IMG/VR virus record: IMGVR_UViG_2703718840_000001
Span: 1 to 10,940 of that record
Strand: one strand, 5' to 3'
Source: a virus
Taxonomy: Duplodnaviria; Heunggongvirae; Uroviricota; Caudoviricetes
DNA: 10,940 nt
The notes under the pieces are model-generated. The model saw only the letters and a program-made list of their open reading frames with translations, did no database searches and was not told where the DNA came from. Made by a program: the position numbers and the translations under genes. Of the stretch, positions 1 through 10,940 are shown piece after piece (the stretch's first letter is position 1; each line of letters starts with the position of its first letter).

Positions 1-862
1 GGAGCTGGACTTTGAAACCATTCTTGCCGAACGCAAGGCGACACTGATTTCCCTTTACCCGGAAGACCAGCAGGAGGCGGTCGCCCGTACCCTGACGCTG
101 GAATCTGAGCCTCTCGTCAAACTGCTGGAGGAAAATGCTTATCGTGAGCTTATCTGGCGTCAGCGTGTGAATGAGGCCGCACGGGCGGTGATGCTGGCCT
201 GTGCCGCCGGTAATGACCTTGATGTGATTGGTGCCAATTACAACACCACGCGCCTGACTATCACCCCGGCAGATGATTCGACCATCCCGCCGACACCGGT
301 AGTGATGGAGTCTGACACCGATTATCGTCTGCGTATTCAGCAGGCGTTTGAAGGTTTAAGCGTCGCCGGGTCGGTGGGGGCCTATCAGTATCATGGTCGC
401 AGTGCTGACGGGCGTGTCGCGGATATCTCTGTCACCAGTCCGTCTCCTGCCTGCGTCACCATCTCCGTGCTGTCACGTGAAAATAACGGTGTCGCATCCG
501 AAGACCTGCTGGCTGTGGTGCGTAACGCCCTTAATGGTGAGGACGTCAGGCCGGTGGCTGACCGTGTGACCGTGCAGTCTGCCGCCATTGTTGAATACCA
601 GATAAACGCCACGCTTTACCTTTACCCTGGCCCCGAAAGCGAACCCATTCGCGCTGCCGCCGTGAAAAAACTGGAAGCGTACATCACAGCACAGCACCGG
701 CTGGGGCGTGACATCCGTCTGTCTGCCATTTATGCCGCTTTGCATGTGGAAGGTGTGCAGCGTGTCGAACTGGCTGCACCACTGGCCGACATCGTGCTCA
801 ACAGTACGCAGGCGTCTTTCTGTACCGAATACCGCGTCGTGACCGGAGGCTCGGATGAGTGA
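1..862 (+). CDS. J: Baseplate assembly protein J (P2 gpJ-like), 5' end lies upstream of the window
   Basis: Frame beginning at nt 2 is open from the window edge (ELDFETILAERKATLISLYPEDQQEAVARTL...) and runs into the listed ORF 167-862. The protein is recognised as near-identical to phage P2 gpJ, which is about 300 aa, so roughly 15 N-terminal residues are missing. The stop overlaps the start of the next gene (ATGAGTGA at 855-862). Confidence 0.92.
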   Translation, partial: ELDFETILAERKATLISLYPEDQQEAVARTLTLESEPLVKLLEENAYRELIWRQRVNEAARAVMLACAAGNDLDVIGANYNTTRLTITPADDSTIPPTPVVMESDTDYRLRIQQAFEGLSVAGSVGAYQYHGRSADGRVADISVTSPSPACVTISVLSRENNGVASEDLLAVVRNALNGEDVRPVADRVTVQSAAIVEYQINATLYLYPGPESEPIRAAAVKKLEAYITAQHRLGRDIRLSAIYAALHVEGVQRVELAAPLADIVLNSTQASFCTEYRVVTGGSDE

Positions 863-1385
863 TTCGCGACTGCTGCCGACCGGCTCATCACCGCTTGAGG
901 TCGCCGCCGCAAAAGCCTGTGCGGAAATTGAAAAAACGCCGGTCAGGATTCGTGAGCTGTGGAACCCGGACACCTGCCCGGCAAATCTGCTGCCGTGGCT
1001 GGCGTGGGCGTTTTCGGTCGACAGGTGGGATGAAAAGTGGCCGGAAGCGACAAAACGCGCCGTTATCCGCGATGCCTATTTCATCCACTGTCATAAGGGC
1101 ACGATAGGTGCAATCCGGCGTGTGGTGGAGCCGCTCGGCTATCTCATCAACGTGACGGAGTGGTGGGAAAACAGTGACCCGCCCGGCACCTTCCGGCTTG
1201 ATATTGGTGTACTGGAAAGTGGCATCACAGAGGCAATGTATCAGGAAATGGAACGGCTGATTGCTGATGCCAAACCTGCAAGCCGTCACCTTATTGGCCT
1301 GAACATTACCCGGGACATTCCCGGCTACCTGTTCGCCGGTGGTGTGGCTTACGACGGCGATGTAATTACGGTTTACCCCGGATAA
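855..1385 (+). CDS. I: Baseplate assembly protein I (P2 gpI-like)
   Basis: 176-aa ORF (MSDSRLLPTGSSPLEVAAAKACAEIEK...) recognised as P2 gpI. Its ATG overlaps the J stop codon, indicating translational coupling, and it keeps the P2 order J-I-H. Confidence 0.92.
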   Translation: MSDSRLLPTGSSPLEVAAAKACAEIEKTPVRIRELWNPDTCPANLLPWLAWAFSVDRWDEKWPEATKRAVIRDAYFIHCHKGTIGAIRRVVEPLGYLINVTEWWENSDPPGTFRLDIGVLESGITEAMYQEMERLIADAKPASRHLIGLNITRDIPGYLFAGGVAYDGDVITVYPG

Positions 1386-1395
1386 GTGAGGAATA

Positions 1396-3618
1396 ATGAG
1401 CACAAAATTCAGAACCGTTATCACCACTGCCGGTGCAGCAAAGCTGGCAGCGGCAACCGCACCGGGAGGGCGGAAGGTCAACATTACCACGATGGCCGTC
1501 GGGGATGGCGGTGGTAAATTACCTGTCCCGGATGCCGGACAGACCGGGCTTATCCACGAAGTCTGGCGACATGCGCTGAACAAAATCAGTCAGGACAAAC
1601 GAAACAGTAATTATATTATCGCAGAGCTGGTTATTCCGCCGGAGGTGGGCGGTTTCTGGATGCGAGAGCTTGGCCTGTACGATGATGCGGGAACGTTAAT
1701 TGCCGTGGCGAACATGGCCGAAAGTTATAAGCCAGCCCTTGCCGAAGGCTCAGGGCGTTCGCAGACCTGCCGCATGGTCATCATCGTCAGCAGTGTGGCC
1801 TCAGTGGAGCTGACCATTGACACCACAACGGTGATGGCAACGCAGGATTACGTTGATGACAAAATTGCAGAACATGAACAGTCACGACGTCACCCTGACG
1901 CCTCGCTGACCGCAAAAGGTTTTACTCAGTTAAGCAGTGCGACCAACAGCACGTCTGAAACACTGGCCGCAACGCCGAAAGCGGTAAAGGCCGCGTATGA
2001 CCTTGCTAACGGGAAATATACCGCACAGGACGCCACCATAGCGCGAAAAGGCCTTGTCCAGCTCAGTAGTGCCACCAACAGCACGTCTGAAACACTGGCC
2101 GCAACGCCGAAAGCGGTAAAGGCAGCATATGACCTTGCTAACGGGAAATACACTGCACAGGACGCCACCACAACGCGAAAAGGCCTTGTCCAGCTCAGTA
2201 GCGCCACCAACAGCGATTCTGAAACGCTGGCCGCAACGCCAAAGGCGGTAAAAGCAGCATATGACCTTGCTAACGGGAAATATACCGCACAGGACGCCAC
2301 CACAGCGCGGAAAGGCCTTGTCCAGCTCAATAGTGCCATCAACAGCGATTCTGAAACGCTGGCCGCAACACCAAAAGCAGTGAAGTCTGCCTATGACAAT
2401 GCTGAAAAACGTCTTCAGAAAGATCAGAACGGTGCGGATATTCCTGATAAAGGACGTTTTCTGAGTAACATTAATGTTTACAGCAAAGGTGAAGTGGATA
2501 AGAAAAAGGGAATGCGAAAGTATTCGTTTGCAGCCCCTGCAAATGTCGTTGCCGGGAAGTGGTATCCCGTTATCTTTCGCCGTGCTGCCAGCCTTTCAGG
2601 AGAAATGGCATCCCGCGTCGTTATTTCCACTGGTTGTTATAACGGCGATTATGTAATGAATAACTGCGAGTTTAATGGCATGGTTATGCCCGGAGGATGG
2701 ACTGATCGTGGTTCATATGCGGCAGGTTATTTCTGGACGTATCAGACCAATGAGCGTTCAATCCATTCCATTGTTACAAGCCTGAAAGATGATGATGTAT
2801 GTAGTGTTTTTTATGTTGAAGCCAGAGCTTTCCCTGTGCAAATTCTTGCAGAGGAAGGGCTAACGGTTATTGTTCCGACAGAGGATTATGTCGTCGGTCA
2901 AACGACATATAAGTGGGGGGCAACTAATCCCGCTACAGAAAGCACGAACGCACAGGCTATTCTGGATTTTAAAAATGGGCGCGGTTATTACTGCTCACAT
3001 CCATTTATTTCCAACCTTTCAGGAAATGCTGCAACAGCCTCAAAACTCGAAACACCGAGGAAAATAGCAGGTGTTGCCTTTGATGGTTCTGGAGATATTA
3101 CCCTTAATGCCAGAAATGTCGGTGCATTTGCACTTCGGCAGACAGGTAATACGGTTAATGGTGATACAGCCGTGGGATGGAATTGGGACAGTGGCGCATA
3201 CAACGCTCTGATTGGGGGAGCATCTGCATTAATTCTTCACTTTAATATAAATGCTGGTAGCTGCCCGGCTGTACAGTTTCGTGTGAATTATAAAAATGGC
3301 GGTATATCTTACAGGTCAGCCCGTGATGGTTATGGTTTTGAATCTGGCTGGTCTGATTTCTATACCACAACACGAAAACCATCAGCGGGAGATGTTGGTG
3401 CATACACCAAAGCTGAATCAGATTCTCGCTATGTCCGGGATATTCGCCTGGGCACTCGTGTTGTTCAGACCATGCAGAAAGGAGTGATGTATGAGAAAGC
3501 AGGGCACGTAATTACAGGGCTTGGTATTGTCGGTGAAGTCGATGGTGATGACCCCGCAGTATTCAGACCAATACAAAAATACATCAATGGCACATGGTAT
3601 AACGTCGCACAGGTGTAA
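1396..3618 (+). CDS. H: Tail fibre protein H (P2 gpH-like), with internal 44-aa tandem repeats and a divergent distal (receptor-binding) part
   Basis: 740-aa ORF preceded by GAGG (1388-1391). The N-terminal ~170 aa (MSTKFRTVITTAGAAKLAAATAPGGRKV...) and the extreme C-terminus (...YEKAGHVITGLGIVGEVDGDDPAVFRPIQKYINGTWYNVAQV) match P2 gpH as I recall it. The middle and distal part is AT-rich and contains a motif (NAATASKLETPRKIAGVAFDGSGDITLNA) that I recall as typical of side-tail-fibre proteins. Confidence 0.92.
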   Translation: MSTKFRTVITTAGAAKLAAATAPGGRKVNITTMAVGDGGGKLPVPDAGQTGLIHEVWRHALNKISQDKRNSNYIIAELVIPPEVGGFWMRELGLYDDAGTLIAVANMAESYKPALAEGSGRSQTCRMVIIVSSVASVELTIDTTTVMATQDYVDDKIAEHEQSRRHPDASLTAKGFTQLSSATNSTSETLAATPKAVKAAYDLANGKYTAQDATIARKGLVQLSSATNSTSETLAATPKAVKAAYDLANGKYTAQDATTTRKGLVQLSSATNSDSETLAATPKAVKAAYDLANGKYTAQDATTARKGLVQLNSAINSDSETLAATPKAVKSAYDNAEKRLQKDQNGADIPDKGRFLSNINVYSKGEVDKKKGMRKYSFAAPANVVAGKWYPVIFRRAASLSGEMASRVVISTGCYNGDYVMNNCEFNGMVMPGGWTDRGSYAAGYFWTYQTNERSIHSIVTSLKDDDVCSVFYVEARAFPVQILAEEGLTVIVPTEDYVVGQTTYKWGATNPATESTNAQAILDFKNGRGYYCSHPFISNLSGNAATASKLETPRKIAGVAFDGSGDITLNARNVGAFALRQTGNTVNGDTAVGWNWDSGAYNALIGGASALILHFNINAGSCPAVQFRVNYKNGGISYRSARDGYGFESGWSDFYTTTRKPSAGDVGAYTKAESDSRYVRDIRLGTRVVQTMQKGVMYEKAGHVITGLGIVGEVDGDDPAVFRPIQKYINGTWYNVAQV
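1918..2400 (+). repeat. In-frame tandem repeat array, 132-bp unit (44 aa), about 3.6 copies, inside tail-fibre gene H
   Basis: Direct reading: units start at about 1918, 2050, 2182 and 2314 (for example ACGTCTGAAACACTGGCC at 1951 and again at 2083). The peptide GLVQLSSATNS(T/D)SETLAATPKAVKAAYDLANGKYTAQDATTARK recurs. Copies 1-2 share the NSTSETL variant and copies 3-4 the NSDSETL variant. Confidence 0.93.
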
Positions 3619-3621
3619 TTT

Positions 3622-4149
3622 ATGCAGCATTTAAAAAATATTACTGCGGGTAATCCAAAAACTGTTGCCCAATATCAACTGACAAAAAATTTTGATGTTA
3701 TCTGGTTATGGTCCGAAGAGGGAAAAAACTGGTATGAGGAAGTAAGTAATTTTCAGGAAGAGACGATAAAGATTGTTTACGACGAGAATAATATAATTGT
3801 CGGCATCACCCGAGATGCTTCAACGCTTAACCCTGAAGGTTTTAGCGTTGTCGAGGTTCCTGATATTACTGCCAACCGACGTGCTGATGACTCAGGTAAA
3901 TGGATGTTTAAGGATGGTGCCGTGATTAAGCGGATTTATACGGCAGACGAACAGCAGCAACTGGCAGAATCACAAAAGGCAACTTTGCTTTCCGAAGCAG
4001 AATCCGTGATTTTGCCGCTGGAGCGCGCTGTCAGGCTGAATATGGCAACAGATGAGGAACGCAGCCGACTGGAAGCATGGGAACGCTACAGCGTTCTGGT
4101 CAGCCGTGTGGATCCTGCAAATCCTGAATGGCCGGAAATGCCGCAATAA
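3622..4149 (+). CDS. G: Tail fibre assembly protein/chaperone (P2 gpG-like, Tfa family)
   Basis: 175-aa ORF immediately downstream of H with AGGTG at 3611-3615. The C-terminal half (...[38 protein letters not shown]) resembles the conserved end of tail-fibre assembly proteins. Length and position match P2 gene G. Confidence 0.88.
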
Positions 4150-4185
4150 GTTGTATAAGCTCTGGTGTGAGATTACATATCTATG

Positions 4186-4224
4186 GCACAGAGTAAAGCC
4201 TAATCTGACAGGCCGCTCTGTGTC
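4186..4224 (+). other. Imperfect inverted repeat / possible stem-loop downstream of G
   Basis: CACAGAG (4187-4193) pairs with CTCTGTG (4216-4222), with a ~22-nt loop. No T-tract follows, so it is not a classical intrinsic terminator. Confidence 0.2.
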
Positions 4225-4370
4225 TGGAGTAGATTTTAGTAAAGCATTATTTTATTAGTGCAAATTCTAAACAATACATTTTATGTATATGATATCCTGC
4301 GGACTTTAATGACTTGGTTTAGGCTAACCAGATAACACTGAAGGAATATTTTTGATAATTAAGGTGCGGT

Positions 4371-4964
4371 ATGTTTACTAAGCGACGATTAAAAAATATT
4401 AACTGGGAGGCAAGTTCAGTGATTCTTGCTATGGTTCTCTTTGTTGGAAATATATTTTATACAAATCATCGTGATGATATAAGCATGGAGGCTGAGAGAG
4501 ACAGTATCAGAACAATGTTTGCATATGAAATCGCTAATAACCATCGCGCTCTCACTTTTCTTGATAAAACGAGAAATATTGGCTTTGACGAAAATTCGGA
4601 GCATTTTGTTGGCGAGCCTTTTGCCATTAATGTCGAATCATTAGGAGGGCCTCGCTTACAGATTGCATTAAACCAGACTGATAAAGTTTTTAAAGCCTAC
4701 TTCAGTGAATTAAGTAAACTTGATAAAGAGGATGTTACTCTTCTTATGGACTATTACCATGAGCAAAGCATCCTGCTGGAGTGTGTAAAATCTACGTTAC
4801 AGAAGATGAAAGGTAATAATGATATTAAAGTTGATATTGATGGTTACTTATTAGAAGAACACTTCATGAATGAGTTTAATCTTTCTAATATTTTGCTTAA
4901 ACGCTATAGCCATTTGTTGTCACAACACCTCAAAAAACCCGAAACAAAGGATTTACATAATTGA
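4371..4964 (+). CDS. Hypothetical protein of the accessory insert between G and FI: predicted single-pass membrane-anchored protein, function unknown
   Basis: 197-aa ORF with AAGGTG (4361-4366) 4 nt upstream of the ATG. It is markedly AT-rich compared with the flanking tail genes. The N-terminus has a basic stretch (KRRLK) followed by a ~17-residue hydrophobic segment (SSVILAMVLFVGNIFY), suggesting an N-in signal anchor. The rest is charged and likely helical, with no catalytic motif I recognise. Only one long ORF lies in this ~1.1 kb inter-module region. Confidence 0.7.
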   Translation: MFTKRRLKNINWEASSVILAMVLFVGNIFYTNHRDDISMEAERDSIRTMFAYEIANNHRALTFLDKTRNIGFDENSEHFVGEPFAINVESLGGPRLQIALNQTDKVFKAYFSELSKLDKEDVTLLMDYYHEQSILLECVKSTLQKMKGNNDIKVDIDGYLLEEHFMNEFNLSNILLKRYSHLLSQHLKKPETKDLHN

Positions 4965-5152
4965 TAATCTGCTAATGGTTATTCATGGGATAACTATGTT
5001 TTATATGTAATCCAACTCAGATGAATTACTGATTCTGGATAATAACCGCAGAGCGGCATATACCCTGACAGGCAAATGTCCGCTTCTTGCTCAAAGCAGA
5101 CTGTCAGATTTGATAACTTTTGGGTTATGTAAATTGTCAGTCGGAAAATGAG

Positions 5153-5170
5153 TGTGTACAAATCAGGACA
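5153..5170 (+). promoter_or_regulatory. Candidate activator-type dyad (TGT-N12-ACA) upstream of FI, possible P2-style late promoter element
   Basis: TGT (5153-5155) - 12 nt - ACA (5168-5170). P2-family late promoters are known to carry a TGT-N12-ACA dyad centred near -55 for Ogr/Delta-type activators, and the FI-operon late promoter is expected in this spacer. The match is short, and the hairpin at 5172-5188 sits where the core promoter would be, so this is tentative. Confidence 0.2.
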
Positions 5171-5171
5171 G

Positions 5172-5199
5172 GCGGGCGAATTGCCCGCATTTTCTTTAT
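5172..5199 (+). terminator. Candidate Rho-independent terminator downstream of the accessory ORF
   Basis: GC-rich 6-bp stem GCGGGC (5172-5177) / GCCCGC (5183-5188) with a 5-nt loop (GAATT), followed by the T-rich run ATTTTCTTTATC (5189-5200). It lies about 200 bp after the 4964 stop and about 100 bp before FI. Confidence 0.4.
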
Positions 5200-5293
5200 C
5201 TGTTGTTTCATCCCCTGACCAGCCAGGTCAAATAGCGTCTCATGCTCTGCACAACAGAAAATAGTTGCACCCATTAACCACGGAGTTAAACGG

Positions 5294-6484
5294 ATGAGTG
5301 ACTATCATCACGGCGTGCAGGTGCTGGAGATTAACGACGGCACCCGCGTCATTTCCACCGTATCCACGGCCATTGTCGGCATGGTCTGCACGGCCAGCGA
5401 TGCAGATGCGGAAACCTTCCCCCTCAATAAACCGGTGCTGATTACCAATGTGCAGAGCGCAATTGCAAAGGCCGGTAAAAAAGGCACGCTGGCGGCATCG
5501 TTGCAGGCCATCGCCGACCAGTCAAAACCGGTCACCGTTGTCGTGCGTGTGGAAGACGGCACCGGCGACGACGAAGAAACGAAACTCGCGCAGACCGTTT
5601 CCAATATCATCGGCACCACCGACGAAAACGGCCAGTACACCGGACTGAAAGCCCTGCTGGCGGCGGAGTCGGTAACCGGTGTTAAACCGCGTATTCTCGG
5701 TGTGCCGGGGCTGGATACCAAAGAGGTGGCTGTTGCACTGGCATCAGTCTGTCAGAAGTTGCGCGCTTTCGGGTATATCAGCGCATGGGGCTGTAAGACC
5801 ATTTCCGAGGTGAAAGCCTACCGCCAGAATTTCAGCCAGCGTGAGCTGATGGTCATCTGGCCGGATTTCCTCGCATGGGATACGGTCACCAGTACCACCG
5901 CCACCGCGTATGCCACCGCCCGTGCGCTGGGTCTGCGTGCCAAAATCGACCAGGAGCAGGGCTGGCATAAAACGCTGTCCAACGTCGGGGTAAACGGTGT
6001 TACCGGCATCAGTGCCTCTGTATTCTGGGATTTGCAGGAGTCCGGCACCGATGCTGACCTGCTTAACGAGTCAGGCGTCACTACGCTGATTCGCCGCGAC
6101 GGTTTCCGATTCTGGGGTAACCGTACCTGCTCTGATGACTCGCTGTTCCTCTTTGAAAACTACACCCGCACCGCGCAGGTGCTGGCCGACACGATGGCTG
6201 AGGCGCACATGTGGGCGGTGGACAAGCCCATCACCGCAACGCTGATTCGCGACATCGTTGACGGCATCAATGCCAAATTCCGTGAGCTGAAAACAAACGG
6301 CTATATCGTGGATGCGACCTGCTGGTTCAGCGAAGAATCCAACGATGCGGAAACCCTCAAGGCCGGAAAACTGTATATCGACTACGACTATACACCGGTG
6401 CCTCCTCTTGAAAATCTGACCCTGCGCCAGCGTATTACCGATAAATACCTGGCAAATCTGGTCACCTCGGTTAACAGCAATTAA
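5294..6484 (+). CDS. FI: Contractile tail sheath protein (P2 gpFI-like)
   Basis: 396-aa ORF (MSDYHHGVQVLEINDGTRVISTVSTAIVGMV...) recognised as P2 FI. GGAG at 5282-5285. It is the first gene after the accessory insert, as in the P2 FETUD operon. Confidence 0.94.
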   Translation: MSDYHHGVQVLEINDGTRVISTVSTAIVGMVCTASDADAETFPLNKPVLITNVQSAIAKAGKKGTLAASLQAIADQSKPVTVVVRVEDGTGDDEETKLAQTVSNIIGTTDENGQYTGLKALLAAESVTGVKPRILGVPGLDTKEVAVALASVCQKLRAFGYISAWGCKTISEVKAYRQNFSQRELMVIWPDFLAWDTVTSTTATAYATARALGLRAKIDQEQGWHKTLSNVGVNGVTGISASVFWDLQESGTDADLLNESGVTTLIRRDGFRFWGNRTCSDDSLFLFENYTRTAQVLADTMAEAHMWAVDKPITATLIRDIVDGINAKFRELKTNGYIVDATCWFSEESNDAETLKAGKLYIDYDYTPVPPLENLTLRQRITDKYLANLVTSVNSN

Positions 6485-6496
6485 GGAGCCTGACCG

Positions 6497-7015
6497 ATGG
6501 CAATGCCGCGCAAACTCAAGTTAATGAACGTCTTTCTGAACGGCTACAGCTATCAGGGCGTCGCGAAGTCCGTCACGCTACCAAAACTGACCCGTAAGCT
6601 CGAAAACTATCGCGGTGCGGGGATGAACGGCAGCGCACCGGTAGACCTCGGCCTTGATGACGATGCGCTGTCAATGGAGTGGTCGCTCGGTGGCTTCCCG
6701 GATTCGGTTATCTGGGAGCTTTACGCCGCAACCGGTGTGGATGCCGTACCGATTCGTTTTGCAGGCTCTTACCAGCGCGACGATACCGGCGAAACGGTGG
6801 CCGTCGAGGTGGTCATGCGTGGACGTCAGAAAGAAATCGACACCGGCGAGGGCAAACAGGGAGAAGACACCGAGTCGAAAATCTCCGTGGTCTGCACCTA
6901 TTTCCGGCTGACGATGGACGGTAAGGAGCTGGTCGAAATCGACACCATCAACATGATTGAGAAGGTGAACGGCGTCGACCGGCTGGAGCAACACCGTCGC
7001 AATATCGGCCTGTGA
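6497..7015 (+). CDS. FII: Tail tube protein (P2 gpFII-like)
   Basis: 172-aa ORF (MAMPRKLKLMNVFLNGYSYQGVAKSVTLPKLTRKLENYRGAG...) recognised as P2 FII. AAGGAG at 6482-6487 overlaps the FI stop codon. Confidence 0.94.
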   Translation: MAMPRKLKLMNVFLNGYSYQGVAKSVTLPKLTRKLENYRGAGMNGSAPVDLGLDDDALSMEWSLGGFPDSVIWELYAATGVDAVPIRFAGSYQRDDTGETVAVEVVMRGRQKEIDTGEGKQGEDTESKISVVCTYFRLTMDGKELVEIDTINMIEKVNGVDRLEQHRRNIGL

Positions 7016-7071
7016 TTTTCATCCGGTCAGCCTGGCTGACCGGTTAACCCCGATTCAGAAGTGAGAAAACC

Positions 7072-7347
7072 ATGAACAAAGAAAACGTCATTACCCTGGA
7101 CAAGCCGGTCAAACGTGGTGAGCAGGTTATCGAACAGGTCACGCTGATGAAACCTAATGCCGGGACGCTGCGCGGTGTCAGTCTGGCTGCGGTCGCAAAC
7201 TCCGAAGTCGATGCACTGATTAAAGTGCTGCCGCGCATGACCGCACCGATGCTGACCGAGCAGGAAGTCGCCGCGCTGGAACTGCCTGACCTTGTGGCGC
7301 TGGCCGGTAAGGTGGTCGGTTTTTTGTCGCCGAACTCGGTGCAGTGA
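7072..7347 (+). CDS. E: Tail assembly chaperone E (P2 gpE-like), zero-frame product
   Basis: 91-aa ORF (MNKENVITLDKPVKRGEQVIEQVTLMKPNAGTLRGVSLAAV...) at the expected position between FII and T. It ends at TGA 7345-7347, just after the slippery site. Confidence 0.9.
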   Translation: MNKENVITLDKPVKRGEQVIEQVTLMKPNAGTLRGVSLAAVANSEVDALIKVLPRMTAPMLTEQEVAALELPDLVALAGKVVGFLSPNSVQ

Positions 7348-7499
7348 CGTTTCCGAAAAATCTCTCGGTCGATGATCTGATGGCGGATGTGGCAGTGATA
7401 TTTCACTGGCCGCCATCAGAACTGTATCCCATGAGCCTGACCGAACTCATCACATGGCGCGAAAAGGCGCTCCGGCGAAGCGGAAACACGAATGAGTAA
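7072..7499 (+). CDS. E+E': Tail assembly chaperone E+E' produced by programmed -1 ribosomal frameshift (joined 7072-7325 / 7326-7499)
   Basis: After a -1 slip on T-TTT-TTG (7320-7326) the new frame reads VAELGAVTFPKNLSVDDLMADVAVIFHWPPSELYPMSLTELITWREKALRRSGNTNE and stops at TAA 7497-7499, overlapping the ATG of T (7492). This matches the known P2 E/E' arrangement. Confidence 0.8.
7320..7326 (+). other. Slippery heptamer T-TTT-TTG, -1 programmed frameshift site for E+E'
   Basis: The heptamer is in the zero frame of E (codons GGT-TTT-TTG), 7 codons before the E stop. The -1 frame is open for 58 further codons to the start of T. Confidence 0.8.
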
Positions 7500-9939
7500 C
7501 AATGTAAAATTACAGGTATTGCTCAGGGCTGTTGACCAGGCATCCCGCCCGTTTAAATCCATCCGCACAGCGAGCAAGTCGCTGTCGGGGGATATCCGGG
7601 AAACACAAAAATCACTGCGCGAGCTGAACGGTCAGGCATCCCGTATTGAGGGGTTCCGCAAGACCAGTGCACAGCTCGCCGTGACTGGTCAGGAACTGAA
7701 AAAAGCCAGACAGGAAGCCGCAGCACTGGCTGTCCAGTTTAAAAATACTGAACGACCAACAAATGCACAGGCAAAGGCAATGGAAGCCGCGCGTAAAAAT
7801 GTGTCGGAGTTACAGGCGAAATATAACAGCCTGAGATTGTCGGTACAGCGCCAGCGTCAGGAACTGAGTCAGGCGGGTATTAATACCCGTAATCTGGCGC
7901 ATGATGAACGAGGGCTGAAAAACCGTATCAGTGAAACCACCGTACAGCTTAACCGGCAGCGTGACGCGCTGGCGCGTGTCAGTGCGCAACAGGCAAAACT
8001 TAACGCAGTAAAACAGCGTTATCAGGCCGGAAAGGAACTGGCCGGTAATATGGCCTCAGTGGGCGCTGCCGGTGTGGGGATTGCTGCTGCGGGAACGATG
8101 GTCGGAGTTAAGCTGCTGATGCCCGGTTATGAGTTTGCGCAGAAAAACTCAGAATTGCAGGCCGTGCTAGGAGTGGCAAAAGACTCCGCCGAAATGACCG
8201 CACTCCGCAAGCAGGCGCGCCAGCTCGGCGACAATACCGCAGCCTCGGCAGATGATGCAGCCGGTGCACAGATTATCATTGCGAAAGCGGGTGGAGATGC
8301 TGCGGCTATTCAGGCGACAACGCCGGTCACGCTGAATATGGCACTGGCGAATCAGCGGTCGATGGAAGAAAACGCGCAACTGTTGCTGGGGACTAAGGCA
8401 TCCTTTCAACTGTCAAATGATGATGTCAGCCATGTGGGCGACGTGTTGTCGGCAACGATGAATAAGTCGGCGGCTGATTTTCAGGGACTCAGTGATGCAC
8501 TGACTTACCTCGGGCCGGTTGCGAGGACTGCAGGTGTAAGTCTTGAGCAGGCAGCAGCCATGACAGGTGTGCTGCATGACAATAACATCAGGGGGTCAAT
8601 GGCGGGGACGGGTAGCAGTGCCGTTGTCACCCGATTACAGGCACCGACTGGAAAAGCATGGGATGCACTCAAAGAGCTTGGCGTTAAAACCTCGGACAAA
8701 AAGGGAAATATGCGTCCGTTGTTCACCATTCTGAAAGAGATTCAGGCCAGCTTTGATAAACACAAGCTGGGAACGTCTCAGAAGGGGGAATACCTTAAAA
8801 CCATTTTTGGTGAGGAAGCCCTGAAATCAGCGAACGTTTTACTGGCAGCGGCAGCAAGCGGAAAACTGGATAAGCTGACCGCCACGCTGAAAGCCTCGGA
8901 CGGTAAAACGGAAGAGCTGGTTAAAATCATGCAGGATAACCTCGGCGGTGACTTTAAGGCGTTTCAGTCCGCTTATGAGGCGGTGGGGACAGACCTGTTT
9001 GACCAGCAGGAAGGCACACTGCGTAAGCTCACGCAGACGGCCACAAAGTATGTGTTAAAACTCGACGGCTGGATCCAGAAAAACAAATCACTGGCGTCAA
9101 CCATCGGCCTCATTGCCGGTGGCGCGCTGGCGCTGACTGGCATCATCGGTGCCATTGGTCTTGTAGCCTGGCCGGTTATCACCGGCATCAATGCCATTAT
9201 CGCGGCAGCAGGCGCAATGGGAGCAATCTTCACGACGGTTGGCAGTGCTGTTATGACGGCCATCGGGGCGATTAGCTGGCCGGTTGTGGCCGTGGTGGCC
9301 GCCATTGTCGCCGGGGCGTTGCTTATCCGTAAATACTGGGAGCCTGTCAGCGCATTCTTTGGCGGTGTGGTTGAAGGGCTGAAAGCGGCATTTGCGCCGG
9401 TGGGGGAACTGTTCACGCCACTTAAGCCGGTGTTTGACTGGCTGGGCGAAAAGTTACAGGCCGCGTGGCAGTGGTTTAAAAACCTGATTGCCCCGGTTAA
9501 AGCCACCCAGGACACCCTGAACCGTTGCCGTGACACGGGCGTCATGTTCGGGCAGGCACTGGCTGACGCGCTGATGCTGCCGCTTAATGCGTTCAACAAA
9601 CTGCGCAGCGGTATTGACTGGGTACTGGAAAAACTCGGCGTCATCAACAAAGAGTCTGACGCACTTGACCAGACCGCCGCCAGAACTCAAGCCGCCACGT
9701 ATGGCAGCGGTGGTTATATTCCGGCGACCAGCTCTTATGCAGGTTATCAGGCTTATCAGCCGGTCACGGCACCGGCTGGCCGCTCTTATGTGGACCAGAG
9801 TAAAAACGAATATCACATCAGCCTGACGGGTGGTACTGCGCCGGGGACACAGCTCGACCGCCAGTTACAGGATGCGCTCGAAAAATACGAGCGGGATAAA
9901 CGTGCGCGCGCCCGTGCCAGCATGATGCATGACGGTTAA
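7492..9939 (+). CDS. T: Tail tape measure protein (P2 gpT-like)
   Basis: 815-aa ORF with a coiled-coil-like, Q/R/A-rich N-terminal part and a Gly/Ala-rich hydrophobic segment (LIAGGALALTGIIGAIGLVAWPVITGINAIIAAAGAMGAI...) typical of tape measure proteins. The start overlaps the E' stop. The sequence is recognised as P2 gpT. Confidence 0.93.
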   Translation: MSNNVKLQVLLRAVDQASRPFKSIRTASKSLSGDIRETQKSLRELNGQASRIEGFRKTSAQLAVTGQELKKARQEAAALAVQFKNTERPTNAQAKAMEAARKNVSELQAKYNSLRLSVQRQRQELSQAGINTRNLAHDERGLKNRISETTVQLNRQRDALARVSAQQAKLNAVKQRYQAGKELAGNMASVGAAGVGIAAAGTMVGVKLLMPGYEFAQKNSELQAVLGVAKDSAEMTALRKQARQLGDNTAASADDAAGAQIIIAKAGGDAAAIQATTPVTLNMALANQRSMEENAQLLLGTKASFQLSNDDVSHVGDVLSATMNKSAADFQGLSDALTYLGPVARTAGVSLEQAAAMTGVLHDNNIRGSMAGTGSSAVVTRLQAPTGKAWDALKELGVKTSDKKGNMRPLFTILKEIQASFDKHKLGTSQKGEYLKTIFGEEALKSANVLLAAAASGKLDKLTATLKASDGKTEELVKIMQDNLGGDFKAFQSAYEAVGTDLFDQQEGTLRKLTQTATKYVLKLDGWIQKNKSLASTIGLIAGGALALTGIIGAIGLVAWPVITGINAIIAAAGAMGAIFTTVGSAVMTAIGAISWPVVAVVAAIVAGALLIRKYWEPVSAFFGGVVEGLKAAFAPVGELFTPLKPVFDWLGEKLQAAWQWFKNLIAPVKATQDTLNRCRDTGVMFGQALADALMLPLNAFNKLRSGIDWVLEKLGVINKESDALDQTAARTQAATYGSGGYIPATSSYAGYQAYQPVTAPAGRSYVDQSKNEYHISLTGGTAPGTQLDRQLQDALEKYERDKRARARASMMHDG

Positions 9940-9953
9940 GGAGGTGACGAAAA

Positions 9954-10433
9954 ATGATGCTCGCGTTAGGTATGTTTGTTTTTATGCGCCAGACGCTGCC
10001 ACACCAGACCATGCAGCGTGAATCAGATTATCGCTGGCCGTCAAATTCCCGTATCGGTAAACGGGATGCCTACCAGTTTCTCGGCGTTGGCGAGGAAAAC
10101 ATGACGCTGGCCGGTGTGCTTTATCCCGAACTGACCGGCGGCAAGCTGACGATGACCACGCTCAGGCTGATGGCAGAGGAAGGTCGGGCGTGGCCGTTGC
10201 TGGATGGCACCGGCATGATTTACGGCATGTATGTCATCAGCAGGGTGAGTGAAACAGGGAGTATTTTCTTTGCAGACGGCACACCCCGAAAAATTGATTT
10301 TACGCTGTCGCTCACCCGCGTTGACGAATCACTGGCCGCGCTTTATGGCGATATCGGTAAACAGGCGGAATCGCTCATCGGTAAGGCCGGCAGTCTGGCG
10401 ACCAGATTCACAGGTATGACGGGGGCGGGATAA
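9954..10433 (+). CDS. U: Tail protein U (P2 gpU-like)
   Basis: 159-aa ORF (MMLALGMFVFMRQTLPHQTMQRESDYRWPSNSRIGKRDAYQF...) with AAGGAGG at 9938-9944. It follows T as in P2, and its TAA stop overlaps the next ATG (TAATG at 10431-10435). Confidence 0.92.
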   Translation: MMLALGMFVFMRQTLPHQTMQRESDYRWPSNSRIGKRDAYQFLGVGEENMTLAGVLYPELTGGKLTMTTLRLMAEEGRAWPLLDGTGMIYGMYVISRVSETGSIFFADGTPRKIDFTLSLTRVDESLAALYGDIGKQAESLIGKAGSLATRFTGMTGAG

Positions 10434-10940
10434 TGCTGGATGCGCTGACATTTGATGCAGGCAGTACGCTGACGCCGGATTACATGCTGATGCTCGACAG
10501 CAGGGATATTACCGGCAATATCAGCGACCGTCTGATGAGCATGACTCTGACGGATAACCGGGGCTTTGAAGCTGACCAGCTTGATATTGAACTGAACGAT
10601 GCCGACGGGCAGGTCGGGCTGCCGGTTCGTGGCGCTGTCCTGACGGTGTATATCGGCTGGAAAGGTTTTGCCCTGGTATGCAAAGGGAAATTTACCGTTG
10701 ATGAGGTTGAACACCGGGGCGCGCCGGATGTGGTCACCATCCGCGCCCGGAGTGCAGATTTTCGCGGGACGCTCAATTCCCGCCGTGAAGGCTCCTGGCA
10801 TGACACCACGCTCGGTGCGATTGTTGAGGCGATAGCCTCCCGTAACAGGCTGGAAGCCAGTGTCGCTCCGTCACTGGCCGGAATTAAAATCCCGCACATC
10901 GACCAGTCGCAGGAGTCTGATGCGAAATTCCTGACCCGTC
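10433..10940 (+). CDS. D: Tail protein D (P2 gpD-like, late control / tail completion), 3' end lies beyond the window
   Basis: Not in the supplied ORF track because it has no stop in the window. The frame from ATG 10433 is open to the window end and translates to MLDALTFDAGSTLTPDYMLMLDSRDITGNISDRLMSMTLTDNRGFEADQLDIELNDADGQVGLPVRGAVLTVYIGWKG..., recognised as the N-terminus of P2 gpD. Confidence 0.88.
   Translation, partial: MLDALTFDAGSTLTPDYMLMLDSRDITGNISDRLMSMTLTDNRGFEADQLDIELNDADGQVGLPVRGAVLTVYIGWKGFALVCKGKFTVDEVEHRGAPDVVTIRARSADFRGTLNSRREGSWHDTTLGAIVEAIASRNRLEASVAPSLAGIKIPHIDQSQESDAKFLTR

Follow-up and report, generated by a model that had tools for sequence, protein, structure and literature searches.

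The window analyzed here, 10,940 nucleotides of DNA (IMG/VR record IMGVR_UViG_2703718840_000001, positions 1 to 10,940), is the late region of a P2-like (Peduovirus) phage. Genes H and G are followed by an AT-rich open reading frame (ORF) of 197 aa, referred to here as the cargo ORF, and by a 329-bp spacer that leads to the tail-sheath gene FI and then to FII, E/E', T, and U. The spacer is likely composed of four modules arranged end to end, namely the 3' tail of the cargo, the right repeat of a cassette, a terminator, and the late promoter pF with its leader. The promoter and terminator are ordinary P2 biology and already known; the repeats are the interesting part. With a left repeat located after G, the right repeat bounds a 1,009-bp segment without a transposase gene (4152–5160) that, judged by its relatives, appears to be a transposon-like cassette. 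The genes, the parts of the cassette, and the short repeats noted within the spacer are as follows.

1396–3618: gene H
3622–4149: gene G, with its TAA stop codon at 4147–4149
4145–4151, unstranded: putative left target-site duplication, decayed, AATAAGT (5/7 match to AATCAGG), containing the G stop codon
4152–4234, plus strand: left (A-type) terminal inverted repeat, outer end TGTATAAGCTCTG
4202–4234, plus strand: 33-nt core of the left repeat, AATCTGACAGGCCGCTCTGTGTCTGGAGTAGAT, with a degenerate inner arm
4332–4359, plus strand: predicted sigma-70-like promoter of the cargo gene (ATAACA, 16-nt spacer, GATAAT), from its match to the consensus
4371–4964, plus strand: cargo ORF
4965–5293: spacer under study
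4965–5077, plus strand: 3' tail of the cargo, class-specific
5049–5073, plus strand: relic half-site CAGAGCGGC-atatac-CCTGACAGG
5065–5071: CTGACAG, contained in the relic half-site
5078–5160, minus strand: right (B-type) 83-nt terminal inverted repeat
5101–5107: CTGTCAG
5135–5140: TGTCAG
5161–5167, unstranded: putative right target-site duplication, decayed, AATCAGG, present in 44 of 51 distinct relatives
5294–6484: FI, with its ATG at 5294

An initial annotation of the window had described the spacer as non-coding, with a terminator and the FI-operon late promoter in it, a prediction that agrees with homology to P2. No ORF of 60 aa or more overlaps 4965–5293, the largest being 55, 46, and 45 aa, and all the motifs listed in that annotation are found where it placed them on direct reading of the sequence. 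The spacer is present over its full 329 bp, at 97% identity, in 13 phage records including P2_AC1; among 5,426 complete E. coli genomes it is present at 80% or more of its length in 202, and 986 contain a partial match. The homology of relatives to the window begins at three tiers (approximately 5072–5086, 5165–5170, and 5203). Each tier coincides with the left boundary of one element (the inverted repeat, the terminator, and the pF activator site, in that order), so the spacer is modular. Motif conservation and covariation were assessed in 51 distinct relatives, and nucleotide diversity in 56, with third codon positions of FI (0.096) as the reference. Comparison sequences are cited below by L numbers.

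Inverted repeats and cargo junctions between G and FI

GenBank records of the Z region, dating from 2004 (P2-EC58, EC30, and EC46; AJ512683, AJ512676, and AJ512680), annotate two inverted repeats, of which the left one follows G. Window positions 5078–5168 align with the 'right inverted repeat' of AJ512683 and 4122–4234 with the left repeat, and the left end of the cassette lies within the left annotation. Cargo junctions were compared in 88 IMG/VR contigs that contain the block. Approximately 30 cargo classes occupy the interval between G and FI in these contigs, and both junctions are sharp to within a few nucleotides. The left junction reads ...AATCTGACA GTCCGCTC TGTGCCAN (G/A)AGCGGAC and then cargo; at the right junction, cargo is followed by GTCCGCT(C/T) (C/T)TCGCTCA AAGCAGAC TGTCAGATT.... 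The two 33-nt cores, read on opposite strands, are copies of one sequence. Since homology between cassettes ends with the repeats, ordinary recombination within the 83-nt repeats suffices to produce sharp junctions. In IMG/VR, no 'empty' palindromic site was found in which the two flanks are joined without an insert.

The cargo ORF of the window matches phrog_3829, a family of unknown function, over its full length (E = 1.4e-132), and has no Pfam or PADLOC match. Its GC content is 0.30–0.38, versus 0.54–0.60 in FI, and the promoter predicted upstream of it is the only consensus promoter match in 4200–5500. Positions 4965–5077 would form the untranslated tail of this AT-rich accessory ('moron') gene; the tail is matched only by 13 phage records with the same cargo, and homology to other relatives starts at 5065–5086. 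The class of cargo present in the window is the commonest among the 88 IMG/VR loci.

The initial annotation had paired CTGACAG (5065–5071) with CTGTCAG (5101–5107) as an inverted repeat. The pair is real, but the significant partner of CTGTCAG is located at 4205–4211, in the left end of the cassette. Positions 5092–5110 pair with 4202–4220, 871 nt apart, over 19 nt at 84% complementarity, a score reached in 2 of 500 shuffles. The motif CTGWCAG occurs six times in the window versus 1.14 expected, and three of the six copies lie in the G–FI interval. Read inward on the minus strand, the right repeat consists of TGTACACACTCA...CTGACA (box 1, 5135–5140)...AATCTGACAG (box 2, 5101–5110)...GTCTGCTTTGAGCAAGAAGCGGAC, so the TGTCAG and CTGTCAG of the spacer are boxes 1 and 2 of this end, respectively. 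Each end of the cassette has two CTGACA(G) boxes, approximately 21–26 and 54–60 nt from the terminus. Subterminal boxes of this kind usually bind a transposase, and those of the cassette may do the same. The repeats are best read as boxes of a transposon-like terminal inverted repeat, not as operator-like sites.

Complete copies of the cassette family and its mode of movement

Matches to the left flank also occur in intergenic DNA of 64 plasmids and of Kluyvera, Erwinia, and Edaphovirga chromosomes. A scan of genome contigs with the degenerate pattern ATCTGACAGNCNGCTNTG returned mostly chance matches, of which five, from Enterobacterales, were useful. Complete copies are present in a Salmonella IncFIB plasmid (875 bp, with a perfect 7-bp duplication, ATTCAGT) and in an Edaphovirga chromosome (1,490 bp, with a perfect 7-bp duplication, AATCATG). 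Both have the same layout, in which an 83-nt end starting TGTATTAGCTCAG is followed by cargo and by an inverted 83-nt end, with target repeats flanking the whole. TGTAT(T/A)AGCTC is the start of the 83-nt ends both in the window and in over 50 complete relatives, and the outer-end pattern occurs in 45 viral and at least 120 metagenome contigs. Among 53 complete pairs, spanning 731 bp to 7.5 kb, the flanking duplication is matched at 7/7 positions in 30 and at 6/7 in 8, with many different sequences; in an offset control on 21 pairs, none exceeded 5/7. The ends are asymmetric, being of an A-type and a B-type, with one of each per element; in the window the A-type is on the left and the B-type on the right.

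A 6.7-kb copy is 98.7% identical at two unrelated sites (L290, 4447–11154; L297, 6598–13308). Homology between the two contigs breaks off right at the termini, and the perfect 7-bp duplication at one site differs from that at the other. This is movement by a transposition-type reaction. The cargo of this copy is a complete type II operon of the cyclic-oligonucleotide-based antiphage signaling system (CBASS), comprising an exonuclease, JAB, E1/E2 ThiF, a SMODS cyclase, and an HNH-SAVED effector. Other defence cargos in relatives are Bil-like ubiquitin-type systems, ThsB-like/Thoeris-type TIR, ApeA, Mrr-type and type IV restriction nucleases, and HNH nucleases, and non-defence cargos include ArsB, ZnuA, MFS transporters, FadL, MscS, an alkyl sulfatase, and a chemoreceptor. 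Two members, L289 (5565–6295, 731 bp) and L326 (342–1203, 862 bp), have perfect duplications and no ORF of 120 aa or more, and resemble empty versions of the element akin to transposable elements of the miniature inverted-repeat type (MITEs). In two other P2-like contigs (L236, 6440–7354; L258, 9191–11562) a member of the family adjoins replication gene A, near the other P2 hotspot.

In all, the repeat family is found at more than 200 independent loci with conserved anatomy, which argues against its being a product of chance or a generic enterobacterial repeat (enterobacterial repetitive intergenic consensus, ERIC, or intergenic repeat unit, IRU). An 11-nt identity, GAGCTTACATA, does link ERIC to the left-repeat consensus of related loci, with one mismatch in the window (GAGATTACATA), but the similarity is limited to this 11-mer, and full alignments to the 127-bp consensus are no better than those of shuffled sequences. 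Some P2-like phages carry a DNA invertase at the G–FI position, and the repeats could in principle be its crossover sites; however, the pro483 sites (TTCTCCCAAACC...) are unrelated, and no 26-bp hix/gix/cix-like site is present. We regard chance, generic repeats, and invertase sites together as hardly credible.

A cognate transposase was looked for in several ways. No transposase or integrase family is among the 25 Pfam families matched by most members in a set of 81 cargo proteins, and large or unpaired elements yielded only cargo and phage genes. Insertion shows no significant preference for stop codons (7 of 34, versus 12% in the control). As a separate observation, a resolvase/invertase-type serine recombinase of 188 aa is encoded in Edaphovirga cremea (L134, 6463–7029) approximately 400 bp outside a complete cassette, a proximity that may be coincidence. 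An insertion sequence (IS) of the IS66 family, present next to some copies, was considered as the parent element and rejected. In typical cases IS66/ISCro1 homology does not extend past the stop codon of tnpC, and among 1,766 plasmid records only 8 have the junction; IS66 is therefore a target rather than the source. In this junction, an A-type end starts exactly at the stop codon of an IS66-family tnpC (L392, 5001–5085, K. pneumoniae plasmid NZ_CP132652; L393, 5001–5065, a Pantoea plasmid). The L392 IS66 element (2385–7691, with the 8-bp duplication GACCTGAT) thereby carries fhuE as a passenger; the B-type end was not found there.

The perfect duplications also bear on a second way of reading the repeats, in which they are not transposon ends but sites at which a conservative site-specific recombinase swaps cassettes. 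The crossover sites would then be the inner 33-nt cores, with 8-nt arms GTCCGCTC/GAGCGGAC around an 8-nt spacer, the arm-spacer-arm geometry of lox/FRT-type sites, of which EC58 has a perfect example. Razor-sharp junctions over approximately 30 cargos fit this idea, as does the occurrence of one duplication with different cargos, seen in the P2 group and again for CTATATC (L228, L233, and L253). On the other hand, scans of the cargo proteins revealed no recombinase gene accompanying the cassettes, the spacers of the two cores differ (TGTGCCAN versus YTCGCTCA), and the sharpness of the junctions is automatic if homology ends with the repeat. The core sites are inverted, so recombination between them would invert the intervening segment and not exchange it, and a transposition-type step is needed to account for perfect 7-bp duplications of variable sequence at the outer termini. 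Site-specific exchange is therefore unlikely as an account of the repeats. Heterospecific lox/FRT-like sites were set aside as the sole explanation, since one site repeats the other in inverted orientation and there are duplications at the outer termini. Transposition for arrival and another mechanism for swapping, perhaps a dedicated recombinase at the inner palindromes, can coexist.

Within the P2 group, relatives with other cargos share the decayed 7-mer pair AATAAGT/AATCAGG of the window, as seen directly in EC58. A decayed pair shared across cargos points to one old insertion followed by replacement of cargo inside fixed repeats. The cassette would have entered an ancestor of the group at a position between G and the V-operon terminator; both repeats would then have persisted across the phages of the group while the DNA between them was swapped, most likely by recombination within the repeats, and they would form the fixed edges of the Z/fun hotspot. 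The right end can be lost, since in Yersinia phage vB_YpM_22 (L007) and P2-EC45 (L101) the left repeat is kept and the right one is absent, with cargo reaching the terminator and homology to the window resuming from 5165–5170.

Predicted terminator and late promoter pF

The features between the cassette and FI, together with the two elements that the initial annotation had proposed there, are as follows.

5153–5170: proposed dyad TGT-N12-ACA, TGTGTACAAATCAGGACA
5171–5199, plus strand: predicted intrinsic terminator, stem GCGGGC/GCCCGC, loop GAATT, tail ATTTTCTTTAT
5172–5188: proposed hairpin, GCGGGCGAATTGCCCGC, then ATTTTCTTTAT
5199–5226 (approximate), plus strand: putative Ogr-type late activator site at pF, from homology to P2 17555–17583 ('activator binding site; activation of pF promoter')
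5229–5236 (approximately −40 to −33), plus strand: CAAATAGC, invariant in all seven aligned phages
5257–5262, plus strand: −10 element GAAAAT, placed by reference to the P2 start; all seven aligned phages have GAAAATA
5268–5270, plus strand: predicted late transcription start, CAC, aligned with P2 17626–17628 ('transcription start site for F operon')
5282–5285, plus strand: Shine-Dalgarno sequence GGAG of FI, by direct reading

The hairpin at 5171–5199 has a seven-pair stem, six pairs of which are GC, and a tail ATTTTCTTTA, and is classed as terminator-like; on folding it has a predicted energy of approximately −13 kcal/mol (z = −3.5). In PSP3, which has no insert between G and FI, a homologous hairpin and T tract occur within a few bases of the G stop codon, with pF next. 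This position directly after G indicates that 5171–5199 is the ancestral end of the V-W-J-I-H-G operon. In L074, L082, and L085 a hairpin is kept by a different stem, GGCAAT/ATTGCC. In a covariation test of three hairpins of the region, three pairs showed double changes, where shuffling gave 2.9 on average; the sequences differ too little from one another for the test to rise above its controls. The only other terminator-like site between G and 5172 is weak and lies inside the cargo ORF, and so late read-through and the cargo transcript would both end at 5171–5199. The terminator would thus stop cargo transcripts as well as V-W-J-I-H-G read-through and insulate the next promoter. A 38-aa 'hypothetical protein' is annotated over this region in several deposited genomes (for example LR595873, L002 3194–3310, corresponding to approximately 5158–5274 of the window, minus strand); its overlap with the terminator and pF makes a spurious gene call probable.

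Downstream of the terminator, 5199–5293 would comprise the activator-dependent late promoter pF and the FI leader. In P2 this promoter is activated by Ogr, delta, or B. The P2 reference annotation (NC_001895/AF063097) places the pF activator site 97–69 nt and the start 26–24 nt upstream of the FI ATG. The corresponding dyad of the window consists of TGT (5204–5206), N12, and CCA (5219–5221), with its center 56–57 nt upstream of the predicted start. The comparison with P2 and P2-like phages that the initial annotation had called for was made by aligning the window with P2, PSP3, pro483, Wphi, L-413C, and YpM22. TTGT at the activator site, CAAATAGC, GAAAATA, and CACCC with the whole FI leader are invariant in this alignment, and the activator-site TGT is retained in 47 of the 51 relatives. 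Nucleotide diversity is 0.037 in 5200–5270 and 0 in the leader (5271–5293), well below the FI reference. No consensus sigma-70 promoter is found in 5200–5293, as expected of an activator-dependent promoter. The pF region is a mosaic: over 5200–5270 the window version is common to Wphi, L-413C, and YpM22, and P2 (L003, 556–629) and pro483 (L009) share another, though the upstream repeat of P2 is shared with the window.

The initial annotation had suggested that the dyad at 5153–5170 could be the Ogr-type site, which would place the hairpin within the promoter, for instance as an attenuator or occluding structure. The dyad is where it was said to be and fits the textbook consensus of P2 late promoters, a partial dyad of the TGT-N12-ACA type near −55 (PMC3931495). 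Several observations nevertheless make it very improbable that this is the activator site. TGT-N12-ACA occurs in the window at chance frequency (3 versus 3.05 expected), reads TGA...GCA in P2 itself, and has both halves intact in only 18 of the 51 relatives. Its center lies approximately 107 nt upstream of the start predicted by alignment with the annotated P2 start, not approximately 55. PSP3, YpM22, and pro483 keep pF, and in them the segment with this dyad is wholly absent. The dyad is upstream of the terminator and straddles the right terminus of the cassette (..GTGTACA, the terminus, then AATCAGGACA), with its TGT half inside the right terminal inverted repeat, and the P2 activator site, as annotated, corresponds to a position downstream of the hairpin. 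For annotation this means that a textbook-looking Ogr dyad is present by chance, and that the actual site of pF, a one-off variant, lies 50 nt downstream of it. The region homologous to pF lies wholly downstream of the hairpin. The hairpin is thus outside the promoter core, and the puzzling arrangement seen in the initial annotation disappears. A further pair of motifs from the same source, TGTTGT (5201–5206) and ACAACA (5251–5256), is present, the former including the activator-site TGT and the latter abutting the −10 element, but their inverted-repeat relation is not kept in PSP3.

It was also suggested that the spacer encodes a small RNA or binds a regulator. In its specific form, 5078–5199 would yield a small RNA, for example from the 3' untranslated region of the cargo and ending at the terminator, or would bind a phage or host regulator. 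The untranslated region is long (208 nt from stop codon to terminator), the imperfect hairpin at 5099–5142 is stable (z = −3.4), and one stem pair changes from A-T to G-C between relatives. However, a scan of 4000–5400 against Rfam 15 (E up to 10) returned no relevant match, only two chance matches to eukaryotic snoRNAs in the cargo ORF with E of at least 0.43. No sigma-70-like promoter lies in the spacer, 5078–5199 included, and the covariation described above is no greater than in shuffled alignments. The diversity of 5102–5170 (0.09) equals that of FI third codon positions, that is, of synonymous sites. In P2, EC58, and L-413C the cargo is on the opposite strand, and the block there belongs to no 3' untranslated region. 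A small RNA or regulator site is accordingly improbable, although less so than the upstream Ogr site.

Proposed origin of the cassette and comparison with known systems

Taken together, these results lead us to propose, tentatively, that the Z/fun repeats define a widespread family of trans-mobilized cargo transposons, unnamed as far as we have found. Its members, with 83-nt asymmetric ends, a 7-bp target duplication, and no transposase, would ferry defence and accessory genes among P2-like phages, plasmids, and chromosomes, within Enterobacterales and outside this order. A copy fixed in a phage would become a docking cassette, between the repeats of which one cargo replaces another. Several points weigh against the reading of the spacer and its cassette given here. 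As no cognate transposase was found, the term 'transposon' depends on the anatomy and on one element at two sites. In the window the duplication matches at only 5/7 positions and the left repeat has a degenerate inner arm, so the origin of this copy is read from its relatives; the 5/7 match is consistent with an old insertion, and the copy is probably a fossil that is no longer mobile. Site-specific recombination is also stated in the literature, in a review (PMC8987985) that cites work by Nilsson et al. from 2004 as showing fun bordered, in genomes of phages and bacteria, by inverted repeats that permit such recombination; this mechanism may hold for the swapping of cargo. At pF, the dyad is TGT-N12-CCA, not the textbook TGT-N12-ACA, and the start site, termination, and Ogr dependence predicted for the window phage depend on homology to P2.

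If correct, the proposal provides a concrete mechanism for at least one phage accessory-gene hotspot. The G–FI hotspot is bounded by transposon-like cassette ends whose relatives move and carry CBASS and other defence systems. Fast exchange at fixed P2 sites raises testable questions, such as which transposase mobilizes the family and whether RecA, a phage recombinase, or the inner palindromes take part in swapping.

The promoter of the window resembles P2 pF in its place before FI, CAAATAGC, the GAAAAT −10 element, the CAC start, the leader, and the hairpin with T tract just upstream, and the CCA variant of the dyad and its distance to the ATG are the same in both. It differs from P2 in the sequence between the dyad and the −10 element, which matches the Wphi/L-413C type.

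As in the Z/fun region of P2-like coliphages (AJ512676–AJ512685), accessory genes alternate between repeats at the locus. To the description of those repeats the present analysis adds that they have defined outer termini (TGTAT...) and 7-bp duplications, that their ends are of two asymmetric types, and that the family is independently mobile outside P2. As far as we have checked, these features appear to be new, as do the breadth of distribution and the defence-rich cargo; a full-text literature search with the terminal sequence returned no relevant paper. Nilsson, Karlsson and Haggard-Ljungquist reportedly described the Z-region inverted repeats of P2-like coliphages in Mol Biol Evol in 2004, and their account may already hold some of these features.

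A hotspot study from 2022 (PMC9122126) covered the cos-proximal gpA–gpQ (old/tin) locus of P2 and left open the mechanism by which accessory and defence genes are exchanged so fast at fixed places in P2-like phages. Both cases concern a fixed place in P2 with alternating accessory or defence systems. They differ in that the window represents the G–FI locus and that a cassette-family repeat is absent from P2's own old/tin hotspot.

Non-autonomous transposons that carry passenger genes are represented by mobile insertion cassettes such as MIC231 of Bacillus cereus, MITEs, and 'transporter' IS elements. The cassette family (0.7–7.5 kb, ORF-less copies included) shares with them terminal inverted repeats, a target duplication, variable passengers, and the absence of an internal transposase; we know of no parent IS for it. 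In contrast to elements of the MIC231/MITE type, it has long (83 nt), asymmetric repeats with a palindrome inside them and a target duplication of 7 bp, and its cargo is replaced within fixed repeats at one site.

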